This document shows positions 4,724 through 29,614 of a DNA stretch of 64,000 nucleotides, one piece after another; position 1 is the stretch's first letter; each line of letters starts with the position of its first letter. Location: assembly GCA_035530515.1 (NCBI GenBank), contig DATKUO010000042.1, forward strand, positions 22,945-86,944, read 5' to 3'. The notes under the pieces were generated by a model. It had not been told where the DNA came from. It did no database searches and saw only the letters and a list, made by a program, of their open reading frames with translations. Origin of the DNA: Bacteroidales bacterium (GTDB lineage: Bacteria; Bacteroidota; Bacteroidia; Bacteroidales; VadinHA17). The position numbers were made by a program, and so were the translations under genes.

Positions 4724-5371
4724 TCACCCAATAACCCTTTCCTCCGGATTGAGCTCGTACGTAAATCCCTTTTCTGAGGAATTCATTATCAGGACTTTAA
4801 AAATAATGAGGTTGGCAAGTATCGATTCGGCTCTGTAAGCCTTAATGCGGGCAATTTTTCTGAATTTTGAAAGGGTGATTGATCCGTTCTCTTTCAGATA
4901 ATCCATAAGGGAATTTTCAGCCTCTCCAAATTTTACCATCACGCCCAAGGGCTTCTCCTTTTTTCGCCAGACCTGGAGCAATACCCTGTTTGCTACAAGG
5001 TTCTGATCATGGTTTCTGAAGTATGTCAGCCACTTTCCGTTTTCATCTTTTGACTGGTATGGCCTTTTGTCTCCTCTCTTGACCTCAACCTCAAGAATGG
5101 TCTTTCCACCAGTAGTATGTTGCTTTATGGTATAAGAAATTTCAGGCCTGCAAAAGAGGTGCGCAGCAGTATCTACCATATATAACTCTTCATCCGATTT
5201 AATTCCTGCTATACTGCCATTATCCCTTACCCCTATAAGTAACCTGCCTCCATCTCTATTTGCAAATGCTGTTAATGTTCTGGCTATCTTTCTGCTATCC
5301 GAAACGCAGTACTTAAAATCAAGCTTTTGATTTTCACCCTCTGCGATTAAATTTTTCAGATAGTTATCCAT
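4724..5371 (-). CDS. AlbA_2 (Schlafen-like) domain protein with probable C-terminal winged HTH
   Basis: GENQKLDFK...IARTLTAFAN.DGGRLLIGVRDNG signature. Confidence 0.85.
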   Translation of the reverse strand: MDNYLKNLIAEGENQKLDFKYCVSDSRKIARTLTAFANRDGGRLLIGVRDNGSIAGIKSDEELYMVDTAAHLFCRPEISYTIKQHTTGGKTILEVEVKRGDKRPYQSKDENGKWLTYFRNHDQNLVANRVLLQVWRKKEKPLGVMVKFGEAENSLMDYLKENGSITLSKFRKIARIKAYRAESILANLIIFKVLIMNSSEKGFTYELNPEERVIG

Positions 5372-8203: not shown

Positions 8204-8269
8204 AAAAGGTATAAATTGTTAATCCGAAAAATCTAACAGGGATGAAATCACAACTACTGCAAGGAAGAA

Positions 8270-8905: not shown

Positions 8906-10092
8906 ATGAAGAATTTAACAGGAAGTCCGAAGTCCGAAGTCAGAAAACGCTATTAATATTAGTTCTTTTACTCCTTGTCCTGCCAGGATGTAAGAAACAT
9001 AGTGAAATCCCTGATTATTTGTATAATACTCCACAAAGTTATGATGACGGAATAGAAACTGCGTCATTGAACAGCGTAGGGATGGATTCACTCCCGGTTA
9101 TAGAAATGATGAACTACCTGAATTCAAAGGATGGACATAAAATCCATAACATCTTAATTATTAAAGATAACAAACTGGTATTCGAAGAGTATTTTGAAGG
9201 CTATGCATTGGATATGAATGCACCCGGACGTAATGGTGCTGTAATGGAATATAATAAAGATACAGATCATTTTATGGCATCTGTATCAAAGAGTGTTACC
9301 TCAGTTATATTCGGGATAGCAGTTAAAGAGGGATATATAGATGATTTAAACAAAAAGGTCATTGATTACTTTCCTGAGTATACCGCAATCCTTACCGGCG
9401 GGAAGGCAGATATTACTATTGCCCATTTGCTCACAATGACCTGCGGACTGACATTTGATGAGAATTCCTATCCTTATGGTGATTCAAGAAATGATGTAAC
9501 ACGGCTATTTTCGGAAGATGATCCCATAAAGTTTATTCTTTCAAAAGAACTGACTTCCACACCCGGCACACAATTCTTTTATAACAGCGGCGCTGTAAAT
9601 GTTCTTGCCGCTATCGTTGAGAAGGCGACAGGGATGAAATTTCTGGATTATGCCAATGCTAAACTATTTGATCCTTTAAGATCTGTGGGAGGGGTGTGGA
9701 GCGCTTTAAACAGTGGTCTTGTATTTGCTTCCGGTGGTCTCAGTTTTAAAGCCCGGGAACTCTCCAAGATAGGGCTGCTGTTTTTAAATGAGGGAATGTG
9801 GGAAGGCAATCAGATAATCACACCAGAGTGGATCGCTGCATCCCAGGAAGAGTATATAGTTACACATGCGATTTTTCCGGATACATCATATGGATACTAT
9901 TGGTGGATCATGAATTATATTGTGAATGGGGTATCTTATAAATGTTTTTTTGCTGCAGGATGGGGAGACCAGTATATGTTTATTATCCCCGGACTCGAAA
10001 TGATCGTTGTAATTAATAGTGGTAATTATGATGGCAGTGGAAGTGTATCGGCATATAACCTGATGAAAGACCACATATTAAAAGCTCTTTAG
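8906..10092 (+). CDS. Serine hydrolase (beta-lactamase family) lipoprotein; start ATG out of frame across a heptamer repeat
   Basis: SVSK (SxxK), HLLTMTCGL, FFYN, AAGWGDQ. Signal LLILVLLLLVLPGC is in the 9019 frame, but ATG 8906 is in another frame. Confidence 0.8.
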
Positions 10093-13558: not shown

Positions 13559-13573
13559 ATCAGGTCATTATGC

Positions 13574-15614
13574 CTACTGCGTTGTTATCTCGACTACAGC
13601 AGCAGGAATGCCTTCTGACTCAGCAGTCACGATTATTGAACCTGCTTTTGTAAACGGTCTGATAATAGCAAGGCACTTCCCGTTATATGTCTTACATTCA
13701 GGTTTGCGAAAGCTTTTCATATCATCGGGTGCAGCGTTTCCTGAGGCCAGTAATTCTCCATCACCTGTGACAGTGAATTTAACATGGATGTCTGAATCAG
13801 GTACAAGGTTCCCGTCTTTGTCCCTTACTTCAACTGTAACATAAGCCAGATCATTTCGATCAGCATTTATCTTGATCCTGTCAGATATTAATCCCAGGGA
13901 AGCTGGTTTTCCTGCAGTTTTGAGTAGCTTAGTCGCAACCTCTTTCCCGTCAATCAACCCAACAGCTTTTAATTCGCCTGCAGAGTATGGTACATCAAAT
14001 TTGGCAGTCAGACGGGTATTGTCAGATGTTTTCTTTTGTCCTATCACCTTACCATTTAGCTCCAGACGGACTTCCTGACAACTCGAATATAAAGAAACCT
14101 GCAAACTATTTTCTTCCTCTCCGGGCCAGGTCCATCTCTGGTATTCCTGAGGCCATCCCCAGAGAGATGTACCCTCTGTTTTACCATTGGGAAGGGGAGC
14201 ATGGACAGCCATCTCCAGCTTACTCCTGTTCCATACTACATCCCTGAAAAAGGATTGAGCTTTTTTCTGCCCGATGATATCAATATCCCCGCACCATGCG
14301 TTATATCATGGCCAGGGCATAATGAATCCGGGATTTTTTTTGTCATAATATGCATGTCCAATACCCGACTCTCCAAGATAATCCATTCCGGTCCATACAA
14401 AATCACCTATTACCCATGGATATTTTTCCACCTGCTGCCAGTTTTCAAATGCTTCAATCGGGAAAGACTCCGTACCTGCCATTATTCTATCGGGGTATTT
14501 TTTATGATCGTTTTCATACTCTCTCCATACGTAATTATATCCTCCCACGTCAAGGCTGGCAAAAGCCGCTTCAGAAGCGGACCATTCCATTCCCGGATGT
14601 TCCCAGAAGAAGCAAACTGCTGCAGTTACGGGCCGGGTATTATCAAGGGACTTAACCACGTTTATCAACTGGTGGGCAATACGCTGTCCGGAGGTGTCTG
14701 CGCGTTCATAAATTTCATTTCCGATACTCCATGCAATAACGCCTGGGTGGTTGCGATCGCGAAGGATTATCGACTGACCAGAGAGATGGTTGAGAAATTG
14801 TCAGCGTCTGGTCAATCGAAAGTGTACCATCTGACCCTATCTTTACAGGTTTCTCAGTCTTATCAATTACACTGGCATCTGAATCACTGATAAAAGTAAC
14901 CAGACTGGCCTCTATGTTTTCAGAGCCACTGTTTTTCAGCTGTACTGAAATATGAATCTTTGCTGAATCCTTTGAAGTTAAATCTGTAGTAACAAAAAGA
15001 CCGTTTTCGGCCACTCTCAAAGGATTTGTAACTGTAAGCCAGACATGACGGTAGATACCTGATCCGCTGTACCAGCGACTGTTTCTTCCCGGGTTCTTTA
15101 CCTCAACAGCAATTACATTATCCTTTCCCGGGGAAAGATAATCAGTAATATCATATGAAAATGGAGTATAACCGTAATAATGATCCCCTGCCTTTTTCCC
15201 GTTAACCCACACGCTTGAAATCATATAAACACCGTCGAAGCAAAGGGAAACCTGTTTCTTACTATAAGTCTTATCTGCTATGAAATGTTTTCTGTACCAT
15301 GCAGTACCTCCTTTAACCTGACCTGTGGAACTGCCTCCTTCGCTGGTTTTGGTAAAAGGACCGATATGATCTTCATTATCGTTATCAGCAAAATTCTCAA
15401 TACTCCAATCATGAGGCAGATCGATGTTTCGCCAGCCGGAGTCGTCAAAAGATGGGTTTTCTGCTCCGGCCACACTGTCGCGCAGAAATTTCCAATCGCT
15501 ATCTAAAGGTAGATTGCGGTTCAATACGGATCCATCTTTTATATTATCAGATGAACAAGAAAAAAGTAATATGCTTAAAAATAAGGAGAGTTGAAGTACA
15601 AATTTCTTCATCAT
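13574..15614 (-). pseudogene. GH2 beta-galactosidase lipoprotein broken by an internal deletion/frameshift and a nonsense codon
   Basis: LPHDWSIE and RWYSGSGIYR. LWSVDNP is joined out of frame to LRDRNHPGVIAWSIGNE near 14765. In-frame TGA at 14306-14308 in PWP*YNAWCGD. Confidence 0.85.
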
Positions 15615-16990: not shown

Positions 16991-17016
16991 CTTTGTAGCG
17001 GAGGGAGCGCTAAAAA
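16989..17016. repeat. Left attachment junction (displaced tRNA 3' end) with full integrase core
   Basis: TTCTTTGTAGCGGAGGGAG (16989-17007) is identical to 29536-29554. Core is TTTGTAGCG-GAGGGAG-CGCTAAAAA (9-bp inverted half-sites, 7-bp overlap). Confidence 0.9.
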
Positions 17017-17134
17017 TACCTTGATTGTTCTATATTCATACTTTACAGAAAATTACTTAAAATATTGAAATATCAGTATGTTATGAATATTGAGTGTAAA
17101 CAAAAGTAAAGAATTGTTAATAAATAAGCGGTAA

Positions 17135-17156
17135 ATGTTTCCAATATGTTTCCAAT
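17135..17156 (+). promoter_or_regulatory. Tandem 11-bp repeat, candidate integrase arm-type sites (left end)
   Basis: ATGTTTCCAAT x2; matching pair at 29463-29484. Confidence 0.7.
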
Positions 17157-17160
17157 TGCT

Positions 17161-17168
17161 TATATTTG
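17161..17168 (+). promoter_or_regulatory. Bacteroidota -7 promoter box for the integrase
   Basis: TATATTTG matches TAnnTTTG, 117 bp upstream of the ATG and abutting the arm repeats. Confidence 0.55.
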
Positions 17169-17285: not shown

Positions 17286-18710
17286 ATGGCGACAACAAAA
17301 TTACTATTGCAGGCACCGTATAAGCCAGTCCCCAAAAAGGACAAGGCAGAACACGACCCCCAGGGACAAAATGGCTTAAACGGCACGAAAACAGGCAAAA
17401 AACTTAATCCGTATGAAACCCGCTTATATTGTTTCTTAATCATCGATCGGATACGTATTATTAAAATTAAGACCGAACATGTTATTTATCCGAACCAATG
17501 GGATTTTAGTAAACAACTGAAAAAAGATAAGCTTGCAGGAGCCCCGGAGTTTAACAAGAAACTTCTGGAACTAAAAGATGAAATTTTATTGAAGTATCAG
17601 AATATTATTAAGGATTTTCCGGATCTGCCATTCTCTAAAGTTGCTGAGTTATTGAAACAATATGGCAAAGGAAAAGAAATCCCTTTTTTGAATAATGATA
17701 AAGATTTTATTCAGGTATTGGATGAGTTCATTTTATCAATGGAGGGAGAAGTTGCACCCGGTACAATCAAAAAATTTATTACTCTAAAAAAGAGTTTGCA
17801 GGAACTCGGAAAGGTTAACAAGAAATATGAAACTTTATCATTCAGCACTATTGACCACGCCTTTAAAGATGCTTTCACTAAGTATTTAAGGAACCAGGCA
17901 CCAAGAGGACGGCAGAAAACACGGCCTGAGGGCTTTCAGTATGGATTATTGAATGATACCATAGGGAAGTATATTGAATGCCTTAAAACATTTTGTAAGT
18001 GGTCTGAGGAGCGAAATTACAACCTTAATGATACCTATAAAGAATTTTCCAATTTTACAAAAGCAAACAGAAAGCGGAAAAAACAAGGCCATGATATTGT
18101 TACCCTGACATTGCAGGAACTAAAGCATTTTTACACTTTTGATTTTTCAGACAGGCCGACTTTAGACCGTGTTCGGGATCTGTTTTGTTTTGGTGCATAT
18201 ACCGGACAACGCTGGAGCGATATTGAACGGCTCGACAAACTGGAAATACATGACGACATTTGGAGTTTCAATGCTTATAAAACAAAAAAAGAAACTGAGA
18301 TTGACCTGATAGGATATGCAGCCCCAGCGCTGGATATACTGAAAAAATACGATTATCAGTTGCCAAAGATAAGCCTTCAAAAATTTAACTTATACCTGAA
18401 GGATGCTGCAAGGATTGCCGGGATTGATACTCAGGTAAAAATACGGCGCTATGTAGGCGATAAAGAAATAGAAATATCAAAGCCAAAGCATGAATATTTG
18501 GGAAGCCATACGGCTCGAAAAACGTGTGTTTCAATTTTGCTGAATAACTACAATATGAACGTTACCCATGTACTTGAAATTACCGGACATTCAGATTTAA
18601 AAACGCTGCAAAAATACATTAACAAAGATCGGAAAGCCCGGAGGGATGCAATAAGCAAAACGAAAAGTATTACAGAAGCATTGACCATCGTAAAGGAGAA
18701 AGCAGGATGA
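17286..18710 (+). CDS. int: Tyrosine integrase (Bacteroidota type: arm-binding, SAM-like and catalytic domains)
   Basis: RDLFCFGAYTGQRWSD (R), YKTK (K), HTARKT (HxxR), ITGH and LQKY (Y); N-terminal KT...IYPNQWD. Confidence 0.95.
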   Translation: MATTKLLLQAPYKPVPKKDKAEHDPQGQNGLNGTKTGKKLNPYETRLYCFLIIDRIRIIKIKTEHVIYPNQWDFSKQLKKDKLAGAPEFNKKLLELKDEILLKYQNIIKDFPDLPFSKVAELLKQYGKGKEIPFLNNDKDFIQVLDEFILSMEGEVAPGTIKKFITLKKSLQELGKVNKKYETLSFSTIDHAFKDAFTKYLRNQAPRGRQKTRPEGFQYGLLNDTIGKYIECLKTFCKWSEERNYNLNDTYKEFSNFTKANRKRKKQGHDIVTLTLQELKHFYTFDFSDRPTLDRVRDLFCFGAYTGQRWSDIERLDKLEIHDDIWSFNAYKTKKETEIDLIGYAAPALDILKKYDYQLPKISLQKFNLYLKDAARIAGIDTQVKIRRYVGDKEIEISKPKHEYLGSHTARKTCVSILLNNYNMNVTHVLEITGHSDLKTLQKYINKDRKARRDAISKTKSITEALTIVKEKAG

Positions 18711-19510
18711 AAACAGAAGATAAATATAAAGACTTTCGGGATTTGCCGGATAATTATGACGAACAGACATTAATCGAATTATTTATAAAAAGGAATTATG
18801 TTCGCCAAGGTTTTGATAACCGTGATGCAAATGATATAATTATTTCAAAGGATATTACGGAGGGGAAAATAGACGGAAAATTTATTTATAATCCAGACAA
18901 AAAAATTTCGTTCAGGGCTTCAACTCATAAGGAACGTATGATATACTGGAAAGAACTACTTACCGGGGGTTTGCAGTTCCCCGAAAACTTTGAAATTGAA
19001 CAGGCAAATTTTGAATTATCATTTCTGAATCTTTCTGAAGTTCCAAATCGTTATTTAAGAAAGAAAGTTGAAGCATATCTGGAATTATGTAAGAAGATTA
19101 TTAAAGAAAACAGGCCGGGGAAAGATGAAAAGTTTATACAAATTGAAGGATTTAATATTTCGGGATTAATTAGCGAGTTACAAAGTTGGAAATTTTTTGA
19201 TGAAAGTTACTATTATGGTTATCGTAAAGATATTCATAATTGGTTTGTTGGTGTGCCTCCTAAAAAACCGATTATTATAAACGTCCATGCTAATATTTTT
19301 ATTAGTGTCATTGCAGATCTCATAGACCAGGGATTTATAAAAAATTCTAAGAAATTCTATTGCTCCTATATAGAAAAATCCTTTTTATTTAAAGGAGGAA
19401 AGCGAAAATTTAAATATATTGATAAGGTCATGAGACCAAATGGTAAAAATCGTGTTTCAGCTCGCAATAAACAGATACCTAATATTCAAATACATAACAC
19501 GTCCGCATAG
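18707..19510 (+). CDS. Hypothetical protein between int and xis (possible regulator)
   Basis: 267-aa ORF, ATGA overlap with int; no motif recognised. Confidence 0.7.
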   Translation: MKTEDKYKDFRDLPDNYDEQTLIELFIKRNYVRQGFDNRDANDIIISKDITEGKIDGKFIYNPDKKISFRASTHKERMIYWKELLTGGLQFPENFEIEQANFELSFLNLSEVPNRYLRKKVEAYLELCKKIIKENRPGKDEKFIQIEGFNISGLISELQSWKFFDESYYYGYRKDIHNWFVGVPPKKPIIINVHANIFISVIADLIDQGFIKNSKKFYCSYIEKSFLFKGGKRKFKYIDKVMRPNGKNRVSARNKQIPNIQIHNTSA

Positions 19511-19519: not shown

Positions 19520-19527
19520 TACCTTTG
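19520..19527 (+). promoter_or_regulatory. Candidate -7 promoter box for the xis/replication operon
   Basis: TACCTTTG lying within a CGTACC direct repeat (19518-19533). Confidence 0.4.
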
Positions 19528-19583: not shown

Positions 19584-19874
19584 GTGAATACAATGCACGA
19601 AGGTATGGAACTAATTGTAACAACACCCGACGAGATCAGAGCGATTTTTAATGATTGCCTGAGAAATGCAAATCTTATTTCGAAACCGGACCCTCCAAAG
19701 AAACAGGAGCTGGAGCGACCTATTTCTCAGCCGGAAGCTATTGAATTTCTCGGTAAAAGCCGTCAAACCCTGATCGCATGGCGAAAGAAAGGAATCATAA
19801 GGGGACACAAATTGTCAGGCCGAATTTATTATTTAAAGAGTGAATTGCTGGCAGCAATAAAAAGTAACATATAG
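19584..19874 (+). CDS. Excisionase-like HTH (HTH_17/MerR-type) protein
   Basis: ISQPEAIEFLGKSRQTLIAWRKKGII...GRIYYLKSEL; start may be 19605. Confidence 0.88.
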   Translation: MNTMHEGMELIVTTPDEIRAIFNDCLRNANLISKPDPPKKQELERPISQPEAIEFLGKSRQTLIAWRKKGIIRGHKLSGRIYYLKSELLAAIKSNI

Positions 19875-19965
19875 CTGTTTGTCCGCTATAAAATTTGATG
19901 TAACAAACAGTAAATGAAACAGATGAAATTAAAAAGTGAAAATATTGGAAACCGACTGGAAACAA
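19868..19965 (+). repeat. Internal att-like site A
   Basis: CATATAGCT-GTTTGTC-CGCTATAAA core, 51-bp gap, then ATTGGAAACCG ACTGGAAACAA arm-like pair. Confidence 0.65.
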
Positions 19966-19978
19966 CAGGGAGGTAATC

Positions 19979-20158
19979 ATGAGCAACTTAAACAGCAAAG
20001 GTGAATTTTTTGAGGGGAAGACATTTGACTATACAACGCATTATCGAATGCCAAAGATTCGAATTAATAAGAAGCGGCGGCGGGTTGCTTATAAAGGAAT
20101 CGTGAATCAGGAGCCTGAAAAGATTGTGAAAACTGTTTTACCCTTTGATGTTTTATAG
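19979..20158 (+). CDS. 59-aa basic protein (not in ORF track), paralogue of the C-terminus of 23996..24358
   Basis: MSNLNSKGEFFEGKTFDYTTHYRMPKIRINKKRRRVAYKGIVNQEPEKIVKTVLPFDVL; GGAGG upstream; stop 2 bp before the next ATG. Confidence 0.7.
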   Translation: MSNLNSKGEFFEGKTFDYTTHYRMPKIRINKKRRRVAYKGIVNQEPEKIVKTVLPFDVL

Positions 20159-20160
20159 AT

Positions 20161-21228
20161 ATGAGCGAATTAGACACCATAACAGCAACAAAGATTAACA
20201 CCTTGCCAGAATTAAGGAGTCTGATACCTTCATTGACAATAGATGAATATGATATACTTGAAAATAGCATCAAATCAGAAGGATGCCGGGATGCTTTAAT
20301 GCTATGGGGCGAAATTCTTGTTGACGGCCACAATAGGTATGAAATATGCCAGAGGTACGGGATAGGGTTTAAAACGGCTCAAAAGTGCTTTAATAACGTC
20401 CAGGAGGCAAAAGAATGGATCATATTTAACCAGTTCGGTAGAAGGAACTTAAATAACTATCAGCGGGCAGAACTGGCCTTGAAACTTGAGGATATTTACA
20501 GTCAGAAGGCAAAAGATAGAATGTTATCCGGTAAGGAAATAGACCCTATGCAGATTTCTGCACAGGGTACAACAAGAGATGTATTATCAAAGATAGCTGG
20601 AGTTTCGCATGATACTATTGACAAGGTAAAAAAGATCGAAGCAAAAGCAACTGATGAAATTAAGCAATATTTACGAATCGGGGATCTTAGTATAAACGAG
20701 GTTCATCAACAAATTAATGGGAAGATAATCATGTCCAAATGCTTTACTGGGGACAATGAATGGTTTACGCCTGCTGAATATGTAGAGAAGTCCCGTAATG
20801 TAATGGGTAGCATAGACATTGATCCTGCAAGCAGTGATGCAGCACAACAAATTGTTAAGGCAAAACAATACTATACTGTTAATGACAATGGCCTCGATAA
20901 GAATTGGATCGGGAATATATTTTTGAACCCCCCTTATTCCTGTACAAAAATCAAAGCATTTACAGATAAAATAATCGAAGAATATAAAGCAGGCCATATA
21001 AAACAGGCCATTGTCTTAACAAACAACAACACCGATACAACTTGGTTCCATAAATTGGCTCAAATATCAACTGTCATGTGTTTTACAAAAGGCAGAATCA
21101 AATTTTATAATGGCGAAGAAATAAGTGATCCAATGTACGGCCAGGTATTTTTTTACATAGGAAATGACTCTGCAAAATTCAAAGAGTATTTTTCAGAAGT
21201 TGGACTAATAATGCAAGATGCCTCATAA
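20161..21228 (+). CDS. ParB-like N-terminal domain fused to phage Dam-type N6-adenine DNA methyltransferase
   Basis: ILVDGHNRYEIC and NQFGRRNL (ParB-like); NEWFTP, DIDPAS and FLNPPY (MTase). Confidence 0.87.
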   Translation: MSELDTITATKINTLPELRSLIPSLTIDEYDILENSIKSEGCRDALMLWGEILVDGHNRYEICQRYGIGFKTAQKCFNNVQEAKEWIIFNQFGRRNLNNYQRAELALKLEDIYSQKAKDRMLSGKEIDPMQISAQGTTRDVLSKIAGVSHDTIDKVKKIEAKATDEIKQYLRIGDLSINEVHQQINGKIIMSKCFTGDNEWFTPAEYVEKSRNVMGSIDIDPASSDAAQQIVKAKQYYTVNDNGLDKNWIGNIFLNPPYSCTKIKAFTDKIIEEYKAGHIKQAIVLTNNNTDTTWFHKLAQISTVMCFTKGRIKFYNGEEISDPMYGQVFFYIGNDSAKFKEYFSEVGLIMQDAS

Positions 21229-21261
21229 TGTTTTGAAATGATAAATTAAATTCTGCTACAA

Positions 21262-21912
21262 GTGGAAACAAAAAACGGATATAAATATACAAAACAATGG
21301 TTCGACTTTATACATGAAACAACAGAAATAGTAACGCCGATGCATACTTCATTATATACATGGATTGTGGAATTGAATAATCAATTACAATGGAAGGCAG
21401 TTTTTGGATTGCCTACAAATAGCGCAATGGAAAGCAGTTGTATCAAATCATATAAATACTATAAAAAAACATTGGATGACCTAATAAGATGGGGTTTTGT
21501 AATTTTAATTGCAAAGGCATATAATCAATACACTTGCAACCAAATTGCTTTAGTAGTGAGTACCAAAGCAGTTGCGAAGCAAGTACCAAAGCAGTTGCAT
21601 CATAGTAAAACAGTAAAAACAGTAAAAACAATATATAATGTTTTTTATGATTCAGAGATTGAAAAAAACAATGATGAGAATTATAAAGACTTTGTGAAAT
21701 TCCTGTTTGGTAAGGTTGATTTAGGCCGGCCATTCAATAAGCTTTTAAAAATGGATGACCAGATAGACTATGAAAAATTTCTAAAGCTTAAGGCAGTATC
21801 AGAACAAAACGGAACATTGATTTATGATAAATGCCGCGCTCTGGAAAACAGCACTAAAAAATATGTTTCATTGTATTTAACACTTAATAATTGGCTAAAA
21901 AATGTACGTTGA
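21262..21912 (+). CDS. Phage-type replication initiator/replisome organiser-like protein (wHTH N-terminus)
   Basis: NGYKYTKQWFDF...HTSLY...N.LQWK..FGLP...YKKTLDDLIRWGFV resembles Bacteroidota phage rep N-termini; directly upstream of the primase-helicase. Confidence 0.55.
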   Translation: METKNGYKYTKQWFDFIHETTEIVTPMHTSLYTWIVELNNQLQWKAVFGLPTNSAMESSCIKSYKYYKKTLDDLIRWGFVILIAKAYNQYTCNQIALVVSTKAVAKQVPKQLHHSKTVKTVKTIYNVFYDSEIEKNNDENYKDFVKFLFGKVDLGRPFNKLLKMDDQIDYEKFLKLKAVSEQNGTLIYDKCRALENSTKKYVSLYLTLNNWLKNVR

Positions 21913-23677
21913 ACATTCAAAAGGAGTTGATACCGGTCGCGGACAGATAACAGAGTATTCCACAGTAACTACTGAGGCCAGAGGACATGAATATTATATT
22001 TCTCATTTTCCTTTTGACAAGTCAATTATAGAGTACGTAAATATTCATAAATCTGTAAAGGATCATAAAGGGAAGCACTTTTGCTCTTTTATTCTTGTGG
22101 ACATTGATTCAGATGATTTGTCAGAAGCAAAGTCACGCGTTTTGGATCTTATAACATACTGGCAATCGGAATACTCATTAAGTCCTGAGGACCTTTCTAT
22201 TTACTTCTCCGGATCAAAAGGTTTTCACCTGGTTATTAATCTGAATACGTTTGGTTCACCTGATCCGCATGAAGAAATGGGATCACTGATAAAAATAGCA
22301 GTTAAAGAGCTCTGCGGCGACATTAAACATGATCCGGTAATTTATGAGAATCATAGGTTAATGAGGGTTGAAAATTCACTTAATGCAAAGTCAGTGCTTT
22401 ATAAAATTCAACTTTCTTATTCTGAATTATTCTCTTTATCGGTTGACGAAATAAAAGAACTGGCAAAACGTCCGCGGACATTCACGCGTAAACGTCCTAT
22501 TTCAGAGATCCGTTTGAATGAAAAAATCAATCGTATTGTAAGGAGTGTATTCCTAAAGTCAGATGAACCGGAAAAGAAACAAATAGATGAAGGATTCTTT
22601 TTACCGGGCCCGCGAGGCGAAAGGAATAATAAACTTTATAAGCAGGCTTTTTATCTTTTCGTAAATACGGACCTACATGAAAAGAGTATTAAAGAGATCA
22701 TCTCTTGTGTAAACAATGCCGCGCCTGATCCATTACCATTATCTGAAATCAATACTTTGGTTAATTCCGCACGGTCCAATCGTAAGAACAAACAGAAAGA
22801 GCCATTAAAGATTAGTATGTTCTCAGATATGTGGCAATCCTTTAAAGACTCCATGAATGAGGAGAATAATAAGATAAAATTAGTTTTTAAAAGTCTGGAT
22901 GAATTATTCAAAGGGAAACAACGTGGTAAGCTCGGAATTATCCTGGGTTACGGTGGTTCAAAGAAATCTTTATACGGTCAAAATGCCTGCTATGAAAATA
23001 TTGTCAGAGGTAATCGCTGCATCTATTCAAATATGGAAATGGGGACTTCTGAGCTTGCTACAAGGTTTATTAATATAGGATTGTCAGGACGCACCGGATT
23101 AGCCTCACAGGACCTTGAAACGATATACAAAGAGGGTCGGGACATTACCGGATCATTAGAAACAATGAAAGAACTATTATCAGATAAACTAATTGTATCT
23201 GAAAATTCAAATATGACTTCAGAGAGGTATGATGAATTAATAGAAAAAATCACTAATGATATTGGTCGCGTGGATCTGCTTATCGTGGACGGAATGTCAA
23301 TGATGGGAGGTACCGGAACCGAAGTTGAACGTGCTAATGAACATTCAAAAAGTCTAAAGGAACTATCTAAAAAATGGAATATTCTTGTACTTGCTATCTG
23401 TCACGTGTCAAAGGGTGATGATCTATTGACTAAGGATCTGACACGAAAAGCACGTGGATCTGAAAAGATAGTGGATAATGCAGACTGGATAATGACACTA
23501 TCACAGATAAAGCAGGGCAAAGATTATATTTCAAATGTAGGTTATTATCATCTATGGGATAAACGCGGCACAGGTCTGCGAAAGGAACATCTTTGGGAAT
23601 TTCAGGAAAGGACTTTGAGAATGTTTGAAAGTGATAAGGATGAATCTTATTTCGGAATTAATCAGAAGGAACAATGA
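21902..23677 (+). CDS. AEP primase-polymerase + PriCT-1 + SF4 (DnaB/RecA-fold) helicase fusion
   Basis: LVDID, YFSGSKGFH and RLMR (AEP); GERNNKLY...PLPLSEI (PriCT-1); GYGGSKKS, LLIVDG, AICH and RGSEKIVDNADW (SF4). Confidence 0.87.
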   Translation: MYVEHSKGVDTGRGQITEYSTVTTEARGHEYYISHFPFDKSIIEYVNIHKSVKDHKGKHFCSFILVDIDSDDLSEAKSRVLDLITYWQSEYSLSPEDLSIYFSGSKGFHLVINLNTFGSPDPHEEMGSLIKIAVKELCGDIKHDPVIYENHRLMRVENSLNAKSVLYKIQLSYSELFSLSVDEIKELAKRPRTFTRKRPISEIRLNEKINRIVRSVFLKSDEPEKKQIDEGFFLPGPRGERNNKLYKQAFYLFVNTDLHEKSIKEIISCVNNAAPDPLPLSEINTLVNSARSNRKNKQKEPLKISMFSDMWQSFKDSMNEENNKIKLVFKSLDELFKGKQRGKLGIILGYGGSKKSLYGQNACYENIVRGNRCIYSNMEMGTSELATRFINIGLSGRTGLASQDLETIYKEGRDITGSLETMKELLSDKLIVSENSNMTSERYDELIEKITNDIGRVDLLIVDGMSMMGGTGTEVERANEHSKSLKELSKKWNILVLAICHVSKGDDLLTKDLTRKARGSEKIVDNADWIMTLSQIKQGKDYISNVGYYHLWDKRGTGLRKEHLWEFQERTLRMFESDKDESYFGINQKEQ

Positions 23678-23789
23678 ATAAAGCAATTTCACTGATGCGA
23701 GTAGCAGCGCTAAAGTGGAGGAGTTTTAGCTCCTGGGTGCGACTCAACCCGCACCTTCGGAGCTTTTAAACGAATTAATAAATAAAAAC

Positions 23790-23978
23790 ATGAAACATTT
23801 TGGCATGATTGAATTTCAATTTGTAGAGGGTAGTAAGGCGCCTACAATAAGCGATCAGTTTAATAGCTGGTCAGATGATAATGAAGATGTAACAGTTTTA
23901 CAAATAAATTCGCACGTTATACAGAACCATGAAGGTTTGGTGGTGGAAACAATGTTTGTATTATTTAGTTTCAAATAA
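23790..23978 (+). CDS. Small hypothetical protein (weak Cse60-like pattern)
   Basis: 62 aa, A-rich leader, co-oriented; FNSWSDDNEDVTVLQI pattern. Confidence 0.55.
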   Translation: MKHFGMIEFQFVEGSKAPTISDQFNSWSDDNEDVTVLQINSHVIQNHEGLVVETMFVLFSFK

Positions 23979-23995
23979 CGATTAAAACTGATGAT

Positions 23996-24358
23996 ATGGA
24001 AAACACAGTAATAGTAAAAGAGCTTCTCGACCAGTTATATATCTGTGAGAAGCAACTAACATCGGGTCAAATGAATTTTATCCATAGTTGCAAAAAGGAA
24101 TTCACCAGGGAAAAGACTTTGAGTGAAAAACAAATTGCAGTACTGAAAGAAATACGGAAGTTTTTGCCGGATCAGGAACCTCGGTTTTCTGGATCAACAG
24201 CAGATAAAAAAACTTACGTCCACGATACGCATTTCAAAATGCCAAAGATCAGGTATAACAATAAGAGATCCCGGAGGGTGAAATACCAAGGAATTATAGG
24301 GCAGCAACCGGAGTTACCCACTGATGAAGACCAATTATCAATTAAACTTAATAGCTAA
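23996..24358 (+). CDS. Two-module hypothetical protein
   Basis: N-half resembles 24579..24806; C-half resembles 19979..20158. Confidence 0.75.
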   Translation: MENTVIVKELLDQLYICEKQLTSGQMNFIHSCKKEFTREKTLSEKQIAVLKEIRKFLPDQEPRFSGSTADKKTYVHDTHFKMPKIRYNNKRSRRVKYQGIIGQQPELPTDEDQLSIKLNS

Positions 24359-24467
24359 AGGCAATGATCGAAGAAAGTAAAAATATTGCACGTCGCCGGA
24401 GTCGTCGCCGGTTTGTGCTTTGCTCCGGGAGGGTTGGTTACTCTCCCCTTTCGGGGCTTTTTATTAA

Positions 24468-24566
24468 AGTATAGCGTATATGCAGCTACAAAATGCTGAT
24501 GTAACATACAGGAATTAAAGTTGATAGGATTAAGAAATAATGAATTTGGAAACATATTGGAAATAA
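24468..24566 (+). repeat. Internal att-like site B
   Basis: AGTATAGCG-TATATGC-AGCTACAAA core, 52-bp gap, then TTTGGAAACAT ATTGGAAATAA arm-like pair. Confidence 0.72.
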
Positions 24567-24578: not shown

Positions 24579-24806
24579 ATGAGAAAAATATCAATATCGG
24601 AAGCGGAGAATATGAGAATTCGGGATCTTCTGGAGTATTTTGAAATGCATGAAACAGAACTCCCCGATGCGCAACTGGCATTTATTTCTTCATTGAAAAA
24701 GGAATTTCGCTGGAAGGGAGGGTTGACTGAAACCCAGTCAAAACGATTATTTGGCATCCGGAAATTTCTGGCTCCTGATGAAGAATTGATAATAAGAAAT
24801 TTTTAA
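24579..24806 (+). CDS. Hypothetical protein, paralogue of the N-half of 23996..24358
   Basis: IRDLLEYF...QLAFISSLKKEF...LTETQ...IRKFL. Confidence 0.7.
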   Translation: MRKISISEAENMRIRDLLEYFEMHETELPDAQLAFISSLKKEFRWKGGLTETQSKRLFGIRKFLAPDEELIIRNF

Positions 24807-24822
24807 TTAATAATTTTGTATA

Positions 24823-25380
24823 ATGAAAAAAGAAACATCTTTAGAACAAAGAACCCGACTCCTGGCAGGAATTCGCGGTCAAAGGCACAATATTATGGGT
24901 TTGGAACTGGAAGAGGAAGTGAAAGTACCGAGCTTGTTCTTTTTCACGGTTTACACACTTGTCGAGCATGATGCTTTTTCGACATTAGATGAAGACTCAG
25001 CAATAAGCAAGCTGGCGGACCTTACTTCTGATGAGATGGAAGTTTATTTCTGTAAAAGTCCCGGCAATATTGAAGGTCCTCCGCCTTCTATGAAAGGTAG
25101 AAAGAAGCTACATATTGAAACAATTAACGATCATCGGGCCTTATCTGACCTTATTTTTCAAATGACAGGGATAAGGATTATTGAGGCTGATCTAATGAAA
25201 TCCCAGAACCAGGCTTTTAAAGCAATGGGCGGAGAATCCGGAGCTCATAAGAAAATTCGCATCCTGGCGGAAATAAGACTTGGTGAGCTTACAAGGAAAA
25301 TGGATATTTCAATTGCCGGGCCCAGAATCGACCTTGCAAAAGTCCGTAAAAGCCAGGAAGAAAAATATAAATCCAAATAA
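24823..25380 (+). CDS. Hypothetical protein
   Basis: 185-aa ORF in a tightly packed operon. Confidence 0.7.
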   Translation: MKKETSLEQRTRLLAGIRGQRHNIMGLELEEEVKVPSLFFFTVYTLVEHDAFSTLDEDSAISKLADLTSDEMEVYFCKSPGNIEGPPPSMKGRKKLHIETINDHRALSDLIFQMTGIRIIEADLMKSQNQAFKAMGGESGAHKKIRILAEIRLGELTRKMDISIAGPRIDLAKVRKSQEEKYKSK

Positions 25381-25388
25381 TTGACAAA

Positions 25389-26030
25389 ATGAAAAATGAA
25401 TCAAAACTCGTTTGTGTTTATGAAGATGCAAATTATCATCAAAAGGTAAAGAGAGACCTGGAAATTGCCAGGGTCGCTTGTCAAAGGCTCCTGAATGAAT
25501 GGCTCCGGCTCGATCTTGGAAAAATTACGGATATGGATGAGCTTCAGATTTATCCGGAAAAGTGTTTTAAACGGGCAATAGATTTAATTCCAATGCCTGA
25601 AAGCGACCAAAAGTATAAAGTGAAAAGAGAAGCATTTTTAGCTACTCTTGACCTTCCTGATCCGACTGATTTATATTACCTGGCAAAAGAAACTATGAAA
25701 GTTCTTTATTGTAGTGTGCCTGGTTTGTTTATAACGGATGGGCAAACAGTCACTTTAGACGAAGGAATAGCCAATTTTTATATGACCATGAATGATATTG
25801 TTATTCCGGAATCTGAGTCGGTTAAAATTGCTCTCGCATCTGATTTGAAGACATGGGTAGATTTAACAAATAGCCTGAACATCCGATTAAATCAGGAACT
25901 GTTTGATAGTAGTTCACCGGTTACTAACAAATTTATGATGCAGAAATTCGGATGGGAAGGCGGAGATGGTAGAGGCTGTAATGCGACATTAACGCTTCTC
26001 CCCGAAAAGCTCCGGGCATGGCTGGCATAA
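25389..26030 (+). CDS. Hypothetical protein
   Basis: 213-aa ORF, 8 bp after the previous stop. Confidence 0.7.
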   Translation: MKNESKLVCVYEDANYHQKVKRDLEIARVACQRLLNEWLRLDLGKITDMDELQIYPEKCFKRAIDLIPMPESDQKYKVKREAFLATLDLPDPTDLYYLAKETMKVLYCSVPGLFITDGQTVTLDEGIANFYMTMNDIVIPESESVKIALASDLKTWVDLTNSLNIRLNQELFDSSSPVTNKFMMQKFGWEGGDGRGCNATLTLLPEKLRAWLA

Positions 26031-26112
26031 AAATTGAATACTTTTGTATTTGTAAACAACAAAGATTCCCTCTATTTTCCACTATTATAGAGGAATAAAA
26101 AACGTTTCAATT

Positions 26113-26400
26113 ATGGCACGATTTAAAAAAGGAACACTAAAAACAGGAGGCCGGGAAGCCGGAACGCCAAATAAAACTACCAGTGAGGTACAGAATGCCT
26201 TATTGAAGATATTATATGACAATCTGGATCAGCTGAAGATAGATATAAAAAGCATGAAAGACAAAGATAGGGCTTTGTTACTAATCAGTTTGGCAAAGCA
26301 CTGTACCCCTCCAGCTTTGAACCCGGAGAAACTTACAGAAGAGCAATTAATTCAAATCATTGATTATTTAGAAAAAAGAGAACATGAGAACAAATCTTAA
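26113..26400 (+). CDS. Terminase small subunit-like protein
   Basis: N-terminal FKKG..KTGGR..GTPNK motif typical of TerS-like phage proteins, followed by a helical region. Confidence 0.6.
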   Translation: MARFKKGTLKTGGREAGTPNKTTSEVQNALLKILYDNLDQLKIDIKSMKDKDRALLLISLAKHCTPPALNPEKLTEEQLIQIIDYLEKREHENKS

Positions 26401-26605
26401 AATGAGAGTAAAAATCCTTATTGCCGGTAAAGGCAGGCCAGTACGCTTTGCATCGCAAAAGTTCGGGGTCTTGTATGGAAAGCCGGGGCAAGAGTTTTTT
26501 GAAACTGTTGATAAAAAGGTGGTTAGTAAAGATGATCAAGCAAAATATTTGCCTGAATCACTTGTTATCATTAATGTTTCCAAACAATTTCCCGATGAGT
26601 TATAA
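26384..26605 (+). CDS. Small protein, array member 1
   Basis: Starts MRTNLKMRVKILIAGK. Confidence 0.7.
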   Translation: MRTNLKMRVKILIAGKGRPVRFASQKFGVLYGKPGQEFFETVDKKVVSKDDQAKYLPESLVIINVSKQFPDEL

Positions 26606-26629
26606 AAATTATTTAGAAAAGAGAACATC

Positions 26630-26842
26630 ATGAAGCAGAAATTAAAAAATGAAATCCGAAATTTGTTAAATGGATCTGAATTGAAAAAAGGAATTCTAGT
26701 TGTCGCTGAAACTGACAAACCCGGATTTTACAAATTCAGAGATAAAATTATTAGTAAAAGGGAATTGGACGTTTTGAAATTAGGTTACAAAGATCTTCTG
26801 ATATTTGAGAAGATTTCTAATGATTTAAAATTTGGAAGATAA
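26630..26842 (+). CDS. Small protein, array member 2
   Basis: Starts MKQKLKNEIRNLLNGS. Confidence 0.7.
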   Translation: MKQKLKNEIRNLLNGSELKKGILVVAETDKPGFYKFRDKIISKRELDVLKLGYKDLLIFEKISNDLKFGR

Positions 26843-27042
26843 TGAGAACGAATCTTAAAAACAGAGTAAAAACCTTAATTTCAGGTAAAACCGAACAAAA
26901 CACAATGAAAATATATTATGTAAATCCCATAACAGGAGAAAAGACGTTATACGGTCAATATCCTAATGATAAAGATCTAAATGTAACTGTTGATTCTCCT
27001 GAAACGGCTGCAACGATGATAAAATTAAGATCCCATGAATAA
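26842..27042 (+). CDS. Small protein, array member 3
   Basis: Starts MRTNLKNRVKTLISGK; TAATG stop-start coupling. Confidence 0.7.
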   Translation: MRTNLKNRVKTLISGKTEQNTMKIYYVNPITGEKTLYGQYPNDKDLNVTVDSPETAATMIKLRSHE

Positions 27043-27310
27043 GACGATTTTAAAAAAACAAGTGCGGAAATTGATTAATAGCGGAGCTGAAAAGCATTTT
27101 ATTAATTTTTTTGTTAAAGATGAATTTTATAAAAAAATACCATCAGATAATTTGAAGCCTGGTATGTTTATAAACCATTGCGAAAAGGAAAACGGCGAAA
27201 CTCCGATATTGATATTTTTTGATATGGACCAGGAAGATAACTTTTGTGTTCAGGATACAAAAAAAAGATGCGATGAAGTTATTGCTTTCCTTTACGATCC
27301 TGATCGGTAG
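27035..27310 (+). CDS. Small protein, array member 4
   Basis: Starts MNKTILKKQVRKLINSG; overlaps the previous stop. Confidence 0.7.
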   Translation: MNKTILKKQVRKLINSGAEKHFINFFVKDEFYKKIPSDNLKPGMFINHCEKENGETPILIFFDMDQEDNFCVQDTKKRCDEVIAFLYDPDR

Positions 27311-28807: not shown

Positions 28808-29386
28808 ATGATACTGGGTATATTAACATCAGGCGATTGGATAGCAATTTGTTCAATAGGTACAGTTGTTATTCTTGCATTTTTAGGTTTGCTCGGGAAA
28901 ATAATTTTTAAATGGGGAGCTCTGGATAAAGGTATTACAAGTCTTGAGGGGGTTCTGGATAAAGGTATTACAAGTCTTGATAGAAAATTTGATAAACTCG
29001 ATGAGAAATTTGATAAATTTATTCTCCAACCCCTTGCCACTAATAAAAGTCCTTTAAATCTTACCGAACCTGGTCGGAAAATATTTATTCGTTTAAAAAT
29101 TCAAGAGTTCGTCAAAGATAATACTGAGGAGATTTTCTTGAAAATGAAGGAAACAAAATATGAATCTGCTTATCAGGCCCAAGAAAAGCTTTTTGAGGTA
29201 GTCGACAGTTACAAAACAGGAAGATATCAAATTAACCTTGAGAACGAGGCTTTTGAAACAGGTCAGCATATTGACATATTAATGAAAGTTATTGCCATTG
29301 GAATCAGAAATGAAATATTTGCAAAACTTGGGTTAAAGGTGGAAGATATTGATAATAGCAAACCTACAGAGACTAAGACCCCATAA
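28808..29386 (+). CDS. Membrane-anchored coiled-coil hypothetical protein (cargo)
   Basis: N-terminal TM, heptad region LDKGITSL x2, then SPLNLT..G motif; has its own terminator at 29422-29448. Confidence 0.75.
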   Translation: MILGILTSGDWIAICSIGTVVILAFLGLLGKIIFKWGALDKGITSLEGVLDKGITSLDRKFDKLDEKFDKFILQPLATNKSPLNLTEPGRKIFIRLKIQEFVKDNTEEIFLKMKETKYESAYQAQEKLFEVVDSYKTGRYQINLENEAFETGQHIDILMKVIAIGIRNEIFAKLGLKVEDIDNSKPTETKTP

Positions 29387-29462: not shown

Positions 29463-29484
29463 ATATTTCCAATATGCTTCCAAT
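29463..29484 (+). promoter_or_regulatory. Tandem 11-bp repeat, candidate arm-type sites (right end)
   Basis: ATATTTCCAAT ATGCTTCCAAT, 54 bp from the core half-site. Confidence 0.7.
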
Positions 29485-29492
29485 TCAACAAT

Positions 29493-29527
29493 AAAAAAAC
29501 CCGTAAACGATTAGTTTACAGGTTTTT
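29493..29527 (-). terminator. Element-supplied terminator for tRNA-Met
   Basis: On the minus strand: AAAAACCTGTAAAC-taatc-GTTTACGGGTTTTTTT. Confidence 0.7.
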
Positions 29528-29542
29528 AGTTGTTGTTCTTTG

Positions 29543-29614
<72 letters not shown>

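Follow-up and report, generated by a model that had tools for sequence, protein, structure and literature searches.

The window, the whole 64,000-nucleotide stretch that was analysed, carries a 12.6-kb satellite-like element integrated in the tRNA-Met gene of a 5.03-Mb genome, and the element holds two internal attachment-like sites, A and B (Table 1). Its integrase retains the catalytic residues R309, K332, H408, R411, H435 and Y444. The N-terminal arm-binding domain Arm-DNA-bind_5 gave a weak signal in 17 of 50 family integrases and none in this integrase itself, and a search of solved structures returned no match for it. The position of orf2 is occupied by a variable gene in nearly all relatives; a repressor function of orf2 was considered and set aside, with no family and no useful fold neighbour to support it. 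The DUF5681-like ORF may encode a terminase small subunit, and terS, terL and tape-measure-like genes occupy the late-module position in relatives. The element is small and integrated, encodes an integrase, an excisionase and a primase/replicase and lacks a full virion gene set, as in PICI-like phage satellites; this element and seven of eight relatives measured range from 6 to 13 kb. Relatives also occur among viral contigs, which is not proof of packaging, and read depth over the stretch was flat. Among the annotated phages compared, the best match reached just 34% identity.

Table 1 Features of the integrated element and its target, in coordinates of the window
Feature	Coordinates	Strand	Details
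Left-end core	16992-17016	+	two half-sites round the 7-bp overlap 17001-17007; far from the tRNA gene
Long arm	17017-17156	+	118-bp spacer with GTAAA-type repeats; tandem 11-bp arm sites 17135-17156
TAnnTTTG box	17161-17168	+	right after the left-end arm sites
Tyrosine integrase (int)	17286-18710	+	474 aa
orf2	18707-19510	+	267 aa, no family
TAnnTTTG box	19520-19527	+	upstream of xis; candidate xis promoter
xis-like HTH_17 gene	19584-19874	+	stop codon inside site A core
Internal site A	19868-19965	+	core 19868-19892, overlap 19877-19883, IHF-like site ~19913-19925, gap 51, tandem arms 19944-19965
Replication module	19979-23677	+	59-aa ORF, methyltransferase, 216-aa ORF, primase-helicase
ParB-like/Dam-type methyltransferase	20161-21228	+	
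216-aa replication-region ORF	21262-21912	+	no family
Primase-DnaB helicase	21902-23677	+	
120-aa ORF	23996-24358	+	N-part resembles ORF after site B, C-part ORF after site A
Terminator-like hairpin	24418-24467	+	stable hairpin then T run directly before site B; z -2.76, 3/200 shuffles as stable; missed by simple terminator scan
Internal site B	24468-24566	+	core 24468-24492, overlap 24477-24483, IHF-like site ~24514-24526, gap 52, tandem arms 24545-24566
Late module	24579-27310	+	small ORFs
DUF5681-like ORF	26113-26400	+	phage-associated; within the late module
Short arm of tRNA end	29463-29538	-	tandem arms 29463-29484 and 54-bp spacer
Right-end core	29539-29563	-	overlap 29548-29554; outer half is tRNA T-arm sequence
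tRNA-Met(CAT)	29542-29614	-	integration target

The two ends of the element are unlike. The left-end core has the same geometry at 35 left ends of relatives and is followed by the long arm, whose repeats point towards the core and whose GTAAA-type repeats are likely candidate Xis sites. A TAnnTTTG box, which we take to be the Bacteroidota -7 promoter element, stands next to the arm sites at 32 of the 35 left ends, and the box behind the left-end arms here is likely the int promoter, overlapped by Int arm sites. At the tRNA end, the short-arm spacer contains the tRNA terminator hairpin (29495-29527). Sites A and B reproduce the short-arm layout (core, IHF-like site, tandem arms) in inverted orientation, each with two good half-sites, whereas the outer half of the right end is plain tRNA sequence. 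The original prediction had described the layout as the same at the ends and inside; this is correct for the short arm at the tRNA side and incorrect for the left end, so that A and B copy only the short arm, the left arm being long with its repeats oriented towards the core. Re-examination confirmed all positions and sequences given for the cores, gaps and arms. It likewise confirmed that A and B are direct repeats 4,600 bp apart, inverted relative to the right end and different in their 7-bp overlaps, and that site A overlaps the xis stop codon, whose TAG (19872-19874) is the TAG of the site A core. Cleavage positions were assumed from the 7 bp that match the tRNA at the ends. RNA structure at A and B was no more stable than in shuffled sequences (z -0.5 and -0.4).

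Such sites are rare by chance. The core motif TAGC-N9-GCTA occurs three times in the window (left end, A and B), the tandem arm TGGAAR-N5-TGGAAR four times (the two ends, A and B), and the strict combination of core and arms twice in the whole genome, at A and B. A genome-wide scan with a matrix trained solely on the left-end cores and arms of relatives gave five matches, namely A, B, the right end, a remnant end on C45 and a weak one. Two matches fell inside the element, against none in each of 500 dinucleotide shuffles.

The internal core-plus-arm motif is conserved in relatives, a scan that had been proposed with the original prediction: one to three internal sites per element were identified in 15 of 29 related elements with enough sequence. 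Duplicates (L001, L066, L083 and L088) were removed before counting, and L076 and L140, with an internal core and doubtful arms, were scored as site-free. Sites were positioned at 2.9 and 7.5 of 12.6 kb, 2.7 and 5.6 of 8.8 kb, 3.5 and 6.9 of 11.5 kb, and 2.6 and 4.6 of 6.7 kb. No internal-type site was found in 134 kb of host flank. There was also no match in 997 kb round integrases of less than 44% identity, a control that measures chance only, since the motifs of those integrases differ or their gap of 31 bp falls short of the scanned range of 38-60. In viral contigs, the long-arm pattern had no match and the short-arm pattern matched eight loci, of which just L145 and L146 score well by the matrix. 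An order-wide search gave matches in 2 of 400 other genomes and a family-wide search in 16 of 348, nearly all already in the element set. As judged by sequence comparison, internal sites are a family trait of Bacteroidales phage-satellite-like elements.

The architecture of these sites is that of lambda-type att half-sites, with inverted core half-sites round a 7-bp overlap and arm repeats that are distinct from the core and helically phased. Among 37 internal sites, 36 are oriented along the integrase direction. The core-to-arm gap is 51-55 in 23 and 42-43 in 8 of 31 hand-curated internal sites and 30-31 in three more distant elements, stepping by helical turns. With a pattern adapted after viewing the spacers, an IHF-like word was located at offset 20-22 in 15 of 23 long spacers, at offset 11 in 7 of 8 short ones and at the same offsets in 6 of 7 tRNA ends; at fixed offsets the value was 8.2 versus 7.2 in shuffles (0/300), again with a pattern adapted post hoc. 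Both half-sites were intact in all 21 internal matches of a scan that required the arm-side half only, and the outer half-site was poor at 7/7 tRNA ends. Furthermore, an element whose ends have the arm variant AAGAAAC (L062), GGGAAAC (L061) or GGACAC (L019) shows that variant at its internal sites as well. Gaps also agree: L019 and L164 have internal gaps of 30-31 and a tRNA-end gap of 31, and L002 has 43 inside and 42 at the tRNA end. Because the internal copies change in step with the element's own end sites, the integrase likely binds them. The initial assignment of A and B to the element's own integrase is supported by this conservation and co-variation.

The same observations bear on the fallback of the earlier account, that the sites are neutral relics of old duplications or tandem insertions. 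A and B are alike at 70% over a 74-nt stretch, nearby ORFs show duplication, and the presence of internal sites is patchy on the integrase tree, all of which fits relics. However, although the overlap drifts, the half-sites, their 7-bp spacing, the phasing and the arm variants have persisted among integrases of 40-78% identity and among unrelated gene sets. The tRNA terminator hairpin, which lies in the spacer of the real end, is also missing from the internal spacers. Conservation and co-variation largely refute the fallback, which we find hardly credible.

The 7-bp overlaps of the internal sites drift freely. None of 28 internal overlaps equals the terminal overlap of its own element, and no identical overlaps were found in 14 pairs of sites within one element. 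Each of the 35 left-end overlaps has the look of a tRNA sequence and none that of an internal site; they follow the target tRNA and are not variable coupling sequences of the IntDOT type. A 1-bp mismatch between left and right overlaps was seen in L010 and L164 only, among the ends compared. Internal overlaps were also considered as spare tRNA targets and rejected, 25 of 28 beginning with G or T and most tRNA-side overlaps with C by inspection.

These overlaps weigh on the proposal that recombination between A and B excises or swaps the methyltransferase-replication module as a cassette. Direct-repeat sites flank the replication module here and in L060, L064, L006, L074, L084 and L085, the modules between them differ widely, and paralogous small genes lie on both sides of site B in three elements, which speaks for a cassette. 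Nevertheless, A and B share only 2 of 7 overlap bases, identical pairs within elements are lacking, and L002, L004, L010 and L013 have one internal site only. Six elements with site A resemble each other over xis, the core and the arms, and the similarity breaks off where the arms end (+97/+98) instead of at the overlap, so that at site A no integron-like module breakpoints at the crossover point were found. The spacer identity of site A tracks xis (rho 0.49) and not the downstream DNA (rho -0.03) over 105 pairs. Since site A, spacer and arms included, shares the inheritance of xis and not that of the downstream module, and since inverted forms were not observed, cassette swapping is unlikely; we give it only a slight chance. 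Neither the cassette use put forward at first nor the expected module swaps in relatives found support.

A mismatch-tolerant inversion, in which the long arm pairs with A or B and flips int-xis or int-to-helicase, would serve as an expression switch or an amplification drive, either in the chromosome or from attP in the circle, where an attP x A flip regenerates attP and an internal-type site. Flp flips on the yeast 2-micron plasmid drive amplification in this manner. In the 36 of 37 sites noted above, the layout is an inverted version of the long arm's natural partner in excision. In inverted alignment, internal overlaps matched their own terminal overlap at 66 positions versus 50.1 in permutations (P 0.0005), and at least 2 bp of identity at the arm-side end occurred in 7 of 28 internal overlaps versus 2.8 expected (P 0.002), the seven cases representing about four lineages and not being independent; direct alignment gave no excess (P 0.17). 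IntDOT recombines across mismatched 7-bp overlaps according to the available text of two studies (PMC2817482, PMC5812530), and in the former 2 bp at one end suffices. Site A shares its last 2 bp with the terminal overlap. The 1-bp mismatches at the ends of L010 and L164 and the insertion of L086 in its tRNA in opposite orientation would also agree with a tolerant integrase. On the other hand, site B shares 1 bp, 21 of 28 internal overlaps lack even 2 bp of end identity, and the inverted form was found at none of 33 scorable left ends of relatives, rare or induced forms lying outside this coverage. L080, which has arms to either side, combines a tRNA overlap with a different arm variant and therefore probably represents a tandem junction.

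The runs listed as containing the stretch were five DNA runs and no RNA run; four of the five were compared as contigs, and two are possibly source samples. In two runs, A and B lie together on an unbroken contig of 10,334 bp, and the contigs of the four DNA runs had no joint at A or B and no 4.6-kb circle joint among the joints listed, with the limits that contigs drop rare forms and that the element was not amplified in those runs. For the inversion suggested originally, the slight excess of overlap matches speaks in favour, and the overlaps without 2 bp of identity, the uninverted left ends and the unbroken contig speak against; overall, we regard it as quite improbable.

A fourth use, missing from the three first considered, is recombination of each site exclusively with the copy of itself carried by another genome unit (A-A', B-B'), similar to Cre/loxP. 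This would close terminally redundant or concatemeric DNA after injection or resolve multimers, and the distinct overlaps would stop the sites from deleting the DNA between them. It is the main rival, although we consider it unlikely. It accounts for overlaps that drift freely without an identical pair in an element, for two good half-sites, intact phasing and several sites spread along the element, and for the missing footprint in genomes; a site's own copy is the only partner with an identical overlap. 'Bent-L' recombination between two lambda attL sites reportedly exists and was counted in its favour, as was TnpI, which resolves at an internal core with a tandem accessory site in the portion of the study available (PMC2847244). 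However, any intergenic place would serve for such exchange, yet the sites keep to the xis end and mostly to the replication/late border across unrelated gene sets, and packaging-type genes occur in elements both with and without internal sites. Overlap identity within elements (2.5/7, 14 pairs) equals that between elements (2.47; P 0.58); being no more different than by chance, the overlaps show no sign of selection against cross-reaction.

The sites could also be decoys that leave transcription unaffected: bound by Int, they would vie with the tRNA end for the Xis-loaded long arm, or would titrate Int as the circle multiplies, and in this way delay excision or prevent re-integration. They are exact mimics of the partner that the long arm needs and lie nearer to it than the real end, their overlaps should abort exchange, and surplus Int-binding sites per copy follow from the layout. 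Decoys leave the fixed position at gene ends and module borders unaccounted for, and about half of the family lacks the sites; their probability appears rather low.

In 12 of 16 cases, the first internal site has the xis stop codon inside the initial 7 bp of its core; in the remainder, xis reads through the core in two and ends before it in two. Later internal sites are mostly found at the replication/packaging (late) border. Any site placed between genes will touch a stop codon when the operon is compact, and site A may have arisen just once. Of 45 xis-like ORFs, 28 have a TAnnTTTG box in the 160 nt upstream, but a forward box was present near only 1 of 31 internal sites; the replication genes thus likely depend on read-through across A. 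A sigma-70 scan of the internal sites was at chance level (49 versus 46.6), leaving a version with operators over promoters unsupported. Strong terminator hairpins precede just 3 of 31 internal cores. In this element, a terminator-like hairpin already precedes site B and a TAnnTTTG box follows it at 24811, so that a roadblock at B looks redundant. Site A is absent in 21 of 36 scorable relatives, in which xis mostly runs straight into the next gene, and a block there would therefore be dispensable.

Of the three uses named at the outset, that of non-recombining operators or roadblocks at operon borders appears to fit best. Specifically, integrase-IHF complexes on the internal sites may act as transcription roadblocks downstream of the xis promoter, a tentative reading to which we assign somewhat less than an even chance. 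Int and a host IHF-like protein would bind each site as a bent two-subunit complex, normally without recombination. The tandem arm sites would bridge both half-sites as at lambda attL, for which a two-bridge Int-IHF complex is described in the available text (PMC4880445); the mismatched overlap would keep A and B from exchanging strands with the ends or with each other, and the inverted orientation would prevent partial excision with the long arm. The complex would probably block RNA polymerase arriving from the xis promoter. At A, it would end transcripts immediately before the xis stop codon and withhold the replication genes, and the resulting stop-less xis mRNA would have its product tagged by tmRNA; a block of RNA polymerase by DNA-bound proteins that leads to trans-translation has been described, as far as the available text goes (PMC13584721). 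Site B and further sites would hold back the late genes, and the blocks would lift once the excised circle multiplies and outnumbers an autorepressed integrase. That no CI-like repressor was found in the element was counted as support. The excess of matches to the own terminal overlap (66 versus 50) is not predicted by a purely non-recombining site.

We know of no role of lambda Int as a transcription roadblock and of no such internal sites in lambda, and internal att half-arms are to our knowledge not part of the description of phage-inducible chromosomal islands and other satellites. The element resembles the latter in its small size, int, xis and primase/helicase genes, tRNA insertion and the terS-, terL- and tape-measure-like genes of relatives, a likeness resting on genes, with putative helper dependence; the divergent repressor/regulator pair next to int of PICIs is absent, and all genes are co-oriented. 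Tn916 Int reportedly binds at oriT, an integrase at an internal site with a job other than integration. In contrast, neither oriT nor relaxase was seen in the present element, and its sites are whole att half-arms.

Closer comparisons, each limited to the available part of the source, are offered by four systems. Lambda attL (PMC4880445) has a core (B-O-C'), one bending-protein site (the IHF site H') and tandem arms (P'1-P'2) on one side, a heterobivalent tyrosine integrase and a longer second arm with Xis-type repeats as its natural partner, all of which the present element appears to share; here, one to three inverted internal copies per element are added, each with its own overlap and two consensus half-sites. 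KplE1 IntS (PMC2951348) belongs to an element that is likewise integrated in a tRNA gene; there the arm sites overlap the int promoter, as at the left ends here, and Int represses its own promoter from att sites. That case concerns a terminal att site and promoter occlusion, for which the core site is dispensable, whereas A and B are internal, lack a promoter box and would act on elongation. IntDOT of CTnDOT (PMC2817482, PMC5812530) is a Bacteroidota tyrosine integrase whose core and arm sites and use of a host bending factor resemble those proposed here. Its required 2-bp end identity is present at A, absent at B and found at 7 of 28 sites in the family; terminal overlaps here are tied to the tRNA, unlike those of IntDOT, and no internal att copies are described in these portions of the two papers. 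Tn4430 TnpI (PMC2847244) also uses an internal core with tandem accessory repeats and a site that recombines with its own copy, but it is a dedicated resolvase with one motif type and one site, whereas here the integrase's own site occurs in several versions with distinct arm motifs and an IHF-like site. A literature search for an internal half-att arrangement retrieved nothing relevant, with subscription papers and supplements thinly covered.

Both main readings might apply in turn, a conjunction that we hold to be fairly improbable. The integrase would then run a repressor-less satellite: in the chromosome, the sites would be roadblocks that cut the xis mRNA and silence replication and late genes, and in the circle, self-copy recombination would close or resolve packaged concatemers. 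Such a combination likens the internal sites to mutually exclusive loxP variants with private overlaps.

Attachment sites are usually viewed as the two ends of an integrated element. This satellite-like family maintains one to three additional, complete half-sites where modules meet, updated as integrase specificity changes, and such sites risk being mistaken for element ends or cassette borders during annotation. Their arm variants, helical-step gaps and drifting overlaps represent a natural data set on how a heterobivalent integrase reads its sites. They point to a second job of a lambda-type integrase, which may be repressor-free transcription control or Cre-like multimer handling.

The insertion in tRNA-Met encodes a tyrosine integrase (Int), the orphan orf2, an HTH_17 excisionase (Xis), a ParB-like/Dam methyltransferase, a primase-DnaB helicase and small late ORFs. 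At its left end, far from the tRNA gene, the arm is 118 bp long and carries GTAAA-type repeats, and its arm sites are directed toward the core; at the tRNA end the arm is 54 bp long, and its arm sites are directed away from the core. The short arm resembles in layout lambda attL, where IHF bends the arm so that two Int subunits form bridges from the tandem arm sites to the two half-sites of the core (PMC4880445). The original prediction had described two internal att-like sites, A and B, with core, spacer and tandem arms; this description was borne out on re-examination, and both are inverted copies of the short arm, not of the long arm. Core plus tandem arms in the strict form occurred twice in the 5.03-Mb genome, as A and B, and a core-plus-arm matrix trained only on the left ends of relatives detected 2 sites inside the element versus 0 in 500 shuffles. 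Elsewhere in the source genome, short-arm ends lie behind a degenerate tRNA-Met end copy (L172, contig C45) and at tRNA-Arg (L173, contig C135), and no close integrase was found for either. A second satellite-like element (L174, contig C70) has a 30% identical integrase, differs in its arm repeats and encodes homologues of three of the window's ORFs; no internal site was seen after its xis.

Coordinates of the element, its internal sites and related features (L-numbers, loci with related integrases)
Sequence	Feature	Position	Strand	Remark
Window	Element	16992 (core) to 3' end of tRNA-Met		12.6 kb
Window	tRNA-Met gene	29542-29614	minus	integration target
Window	Site A	19868-19965
Window	Short reading frame	19923-19976		begins in site A spacer, passes through arm sites; same frame is N-terminus of next gene in L006 and L074
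Window	Site B	24468-24566
Window	-7 box after B	24811
Window	ORFs with homologues in L174	21262, 27566, 27862
Window	70-78 aa family	23996-24358, 24579-24806		upstream copy fused to paralogue of ORF after site A
L074	70-78 aa family	8025-8261, 9414-9641
L076	70-78 aa family	4080-4298, 4615-4803
L010	70-78 aa family	13688-13924
Window	33-bp tandem duplication	28915-28980		within 192-aa ORF near right end
L003	Reverse-oriented site	19870-19990
L022	Second arm pair, opposite orientation	9835, 9941		upstream of int; more distant element
L060	Half-site-like word	1912
L079	Half-site-like word	2826
L080	Short arm joined to long arm	640-900		at tRNA-Met
L086	Reversed insertion	9687-9900
L172	Short-arm end	13570-13700

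Among the candidates scored, 342 integrase homologues reached E 1e-40 or better, and a search with an alignment of 50 of them yielded about 140 loci. Close loci bearing titles were mostly Bacteroidales genome bins, and within the window's own family the integrase was present in 16 of 348 other genomes. Since several relatives carry terminase and tape-measure-like genes, the elements were regarded as satellite-like. Across 50 loci that are not duplicates and whose integrase is at least 50% identical, the matrix scored 26 core-plus-arm sites in the 271.6 kb downstream of int, against none in 134.3 kb of host flank. Where the downstream sequence reached 4 kb or more (29 loci, window and L003 counted), 15 loci had one or more internal sites. 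The distribution of site A was patchy (15/36 scorable rows of the integrase tree), with well-supported branches forcing at least six gains or losses, and the genes between sites were unrelated from one element to the next. Internal sites occurred in five of eight elements with a DnaB-like helicase, a sixth (L140) having an internal core; L008, L009 and L015, which share one 340-425 aa replication-region protein family, had none.

Thirty-one internal sites were curated by hand, and five more plus that of L003 were added for the orientation count. All but the L003 site (36/37; 31/31 curated) were oriented along the direction of int. The L003 site, with a non-tRNA overlap 3 bp away from the left-end overlap, lies close to an IS21-like transposase and is possibly either a secondary right end or an internal site that was rearranged. 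Core-to-arm gaps were 51-55 in 23 curated sites and 42-43 in eight, with gaps of 30-31 in L018, L019 and L164, and neighbouring classes are one helical turn apart. An IHF-like word, from a pattern derived from the IHF consensus, lay at offset 20-22 in 15/23 long spacers, at offset 11 in 7/8 short spacers and at corresponding offsets in 6/7 tRNA ends; its mean best score was 8.2 versus 7.2 in shuffled spacers (0/300), the pattern having been adapted post hoc after the spacers were seen. Changed terminal arm motifs recurred in the element's own internal arms (L062, L061, L019), and tRNA-end gaps of 31 or 42 were paired with internal gaps of 30-31 or 43 (L019, L164, L002), although this agreement failed for some sites of L006 and L010. 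Internal spacers do not contain the tRNA terminator hairpin found at the real end, which argues that internal sites are not fresh copies of that end. A scan requiring only the arm-side half and strong arms picked up 21 internal sites and seven tRNA ends, plus one shifted duplicate; the outer half was good in every internal site and poor in every tRNA end. Since orientation, helical phasing, arm co-variation and good outer half-sites are retained, it is scarcely credible that the sites are neutral relics. Judged from sequence, their anatomy is under selection, and co-variation and phasing make it very probable that A and B are bound by Int.

None of 28 internal overlaps was identical to its own terminal overlap (best match 6/7 bp, in L004), nor were any of 14 pairs within one element identical, and identity within elements (2.5/7) equalled that between elements (2.47). 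The overlap thus drifts as if its only partner were itself. A and B are built like a lambda-type att site but, by this comparison, have among the other sites of the element no partner of identical overlap, as an ordinary att site would. We tentatively favour a roadblock reading, in which Int-IHF complexes would sit on A and B, normally without recombining, and block elongation; the overlaps suggest that they would recombine neither with the ends nor with each other. The strongest rival, which we consider doubtful, is that each internal site recombines with its own copy, its only perfect overlap partner, on another genome unit. P1 loxP recombines with its own copy in the way proposed here, and recombination of lambda attL with attL is reportedly on record. 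The Tn4430 resolution site likewise recombines with its own copy (PMC2847244). This rival accounts for the overlaps as well as the roadblock reading does but fails to explain the positions of the sites.

Drift without an outside partner is contradicted in part by an excess of matches to the element's own terminal overlap in inverted alignment, which mismatch-tolerant inversion would fit (66 versus 50.1 permuted, P 0.0005), with at least 2 bp at the arm-side end in 7/28 (2.8 expected from permutation, P 0.002), these cases representing about four lineages whose kin are not independent; the excess in direct alignment was not significant (P 0.17). The family has recombined across mismatches at some time, as left and right overlaps differ by 1 bp in L010 and in L164, and L086 sits in its tRNA in the reverse direction. 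In L086 the tRNA-Met lies on the integrase side, the overlap is reversed relative to the arms, and the long arm has a terminator-like hairpin. However, IntDOT requires 2 bp at one overlap end (PMC2817482), an identity found in A but not in B and 20 other internal sites. Had the long arm inverted with A, the host side of the left core would carry a short arm whose overlap is not of tRNA type, a trace seen at none of 33 scorable left ends. L080 does have a short arm in this place, but its overlap is that of the tRNA, the terminator hairpin is present and the arm variant is a different one; it fits a tandem junction, the short arm of one type being joined to the long arm of another. Further tandem junctions at tRNA-Met are seen in L071 and L078, where decayed tRNA-end remnants bearing short arms lie upstream of the left core. 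A 10,334-bp contig spanned A and B in two runs, possibly of the source samples, at a depth equal to its flanks, with the element not amplified, and none of the joints listed lay at A or B, contigs dropping rare forms. We hold the inversion proposed originally unlikely; that the sites act as decoys is no more probable.

If cassettes were exchanged at the overlap, spacer and arms should be inherited together with the module downstream. What was seen is nucleotide similarity that extends from xis across the core as far as +97/+98, the arm end (window, L062, L064, L074, L078 and L006). Over 105 pairs, which are not independent, spacer identity was correlated with that of the xis 3' end (rho 0.49) but not with that of the next 100 bp downstream (rho -0.03). 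As several elements also have a single internal site only, excision or swapping of a cassette between A and B, also predicted originally, is quite improbable. The readings need not exclude one another.

The positions of the sites bear on the roadblock reading. In 12 of the 16 elements that have site A, the end of the xis stop codon falls in the core's first 7 bp; in eight, the stop is the TAG of the core. Most of the later sites separate the replication module from the late module or one late sub-module from another (L064, L146), and many extend over a gene end as well. A 70-78 aa protein family, to which no function is assigned, adjoins the second site, with copies on both sides of it in three elements. 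The motif TAnnTTTG, the Bacteroidota -7 box, follows the left arm sites in 32/35 left ends, two duplicates among them. KplE1 has this arm-site/promoter layout in common with these left ends, and its IntS represses itself under it (PMC2951348). No repressor family was found among orf2 and its counterparts. A core half-site-like word lies immediately before or on the int start codon in L060 and L079 and upstream of int in L003, L063, L075 and L081, and is possibly an extra autoregulatory site.

Three observations count against a general roadblock: site A is absent from 21/36 scorable relatives, a terminator-like hairpin precedes B in the window, and a -7 box follows B. No relevant paper on a comparable internal arrangement was found in the open-access literature. 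LacI is reportedly a protein roadblock after which trans-translation acts. Stopping the polymerase immediately ahead of the xis stop codon would, in addition, yield a stop-less xis mRNA, of the kind that trans-translation handles after protein roadblocks (PMC13584721). The TAnnTTTG box was found upstream of 28/45 xis-like ORFs and, in forward orientation, near only 1/31 internal sites, so the replication genes likely depend on a transcript crossing site A, where the putative Int-IHF complex would block elongation.
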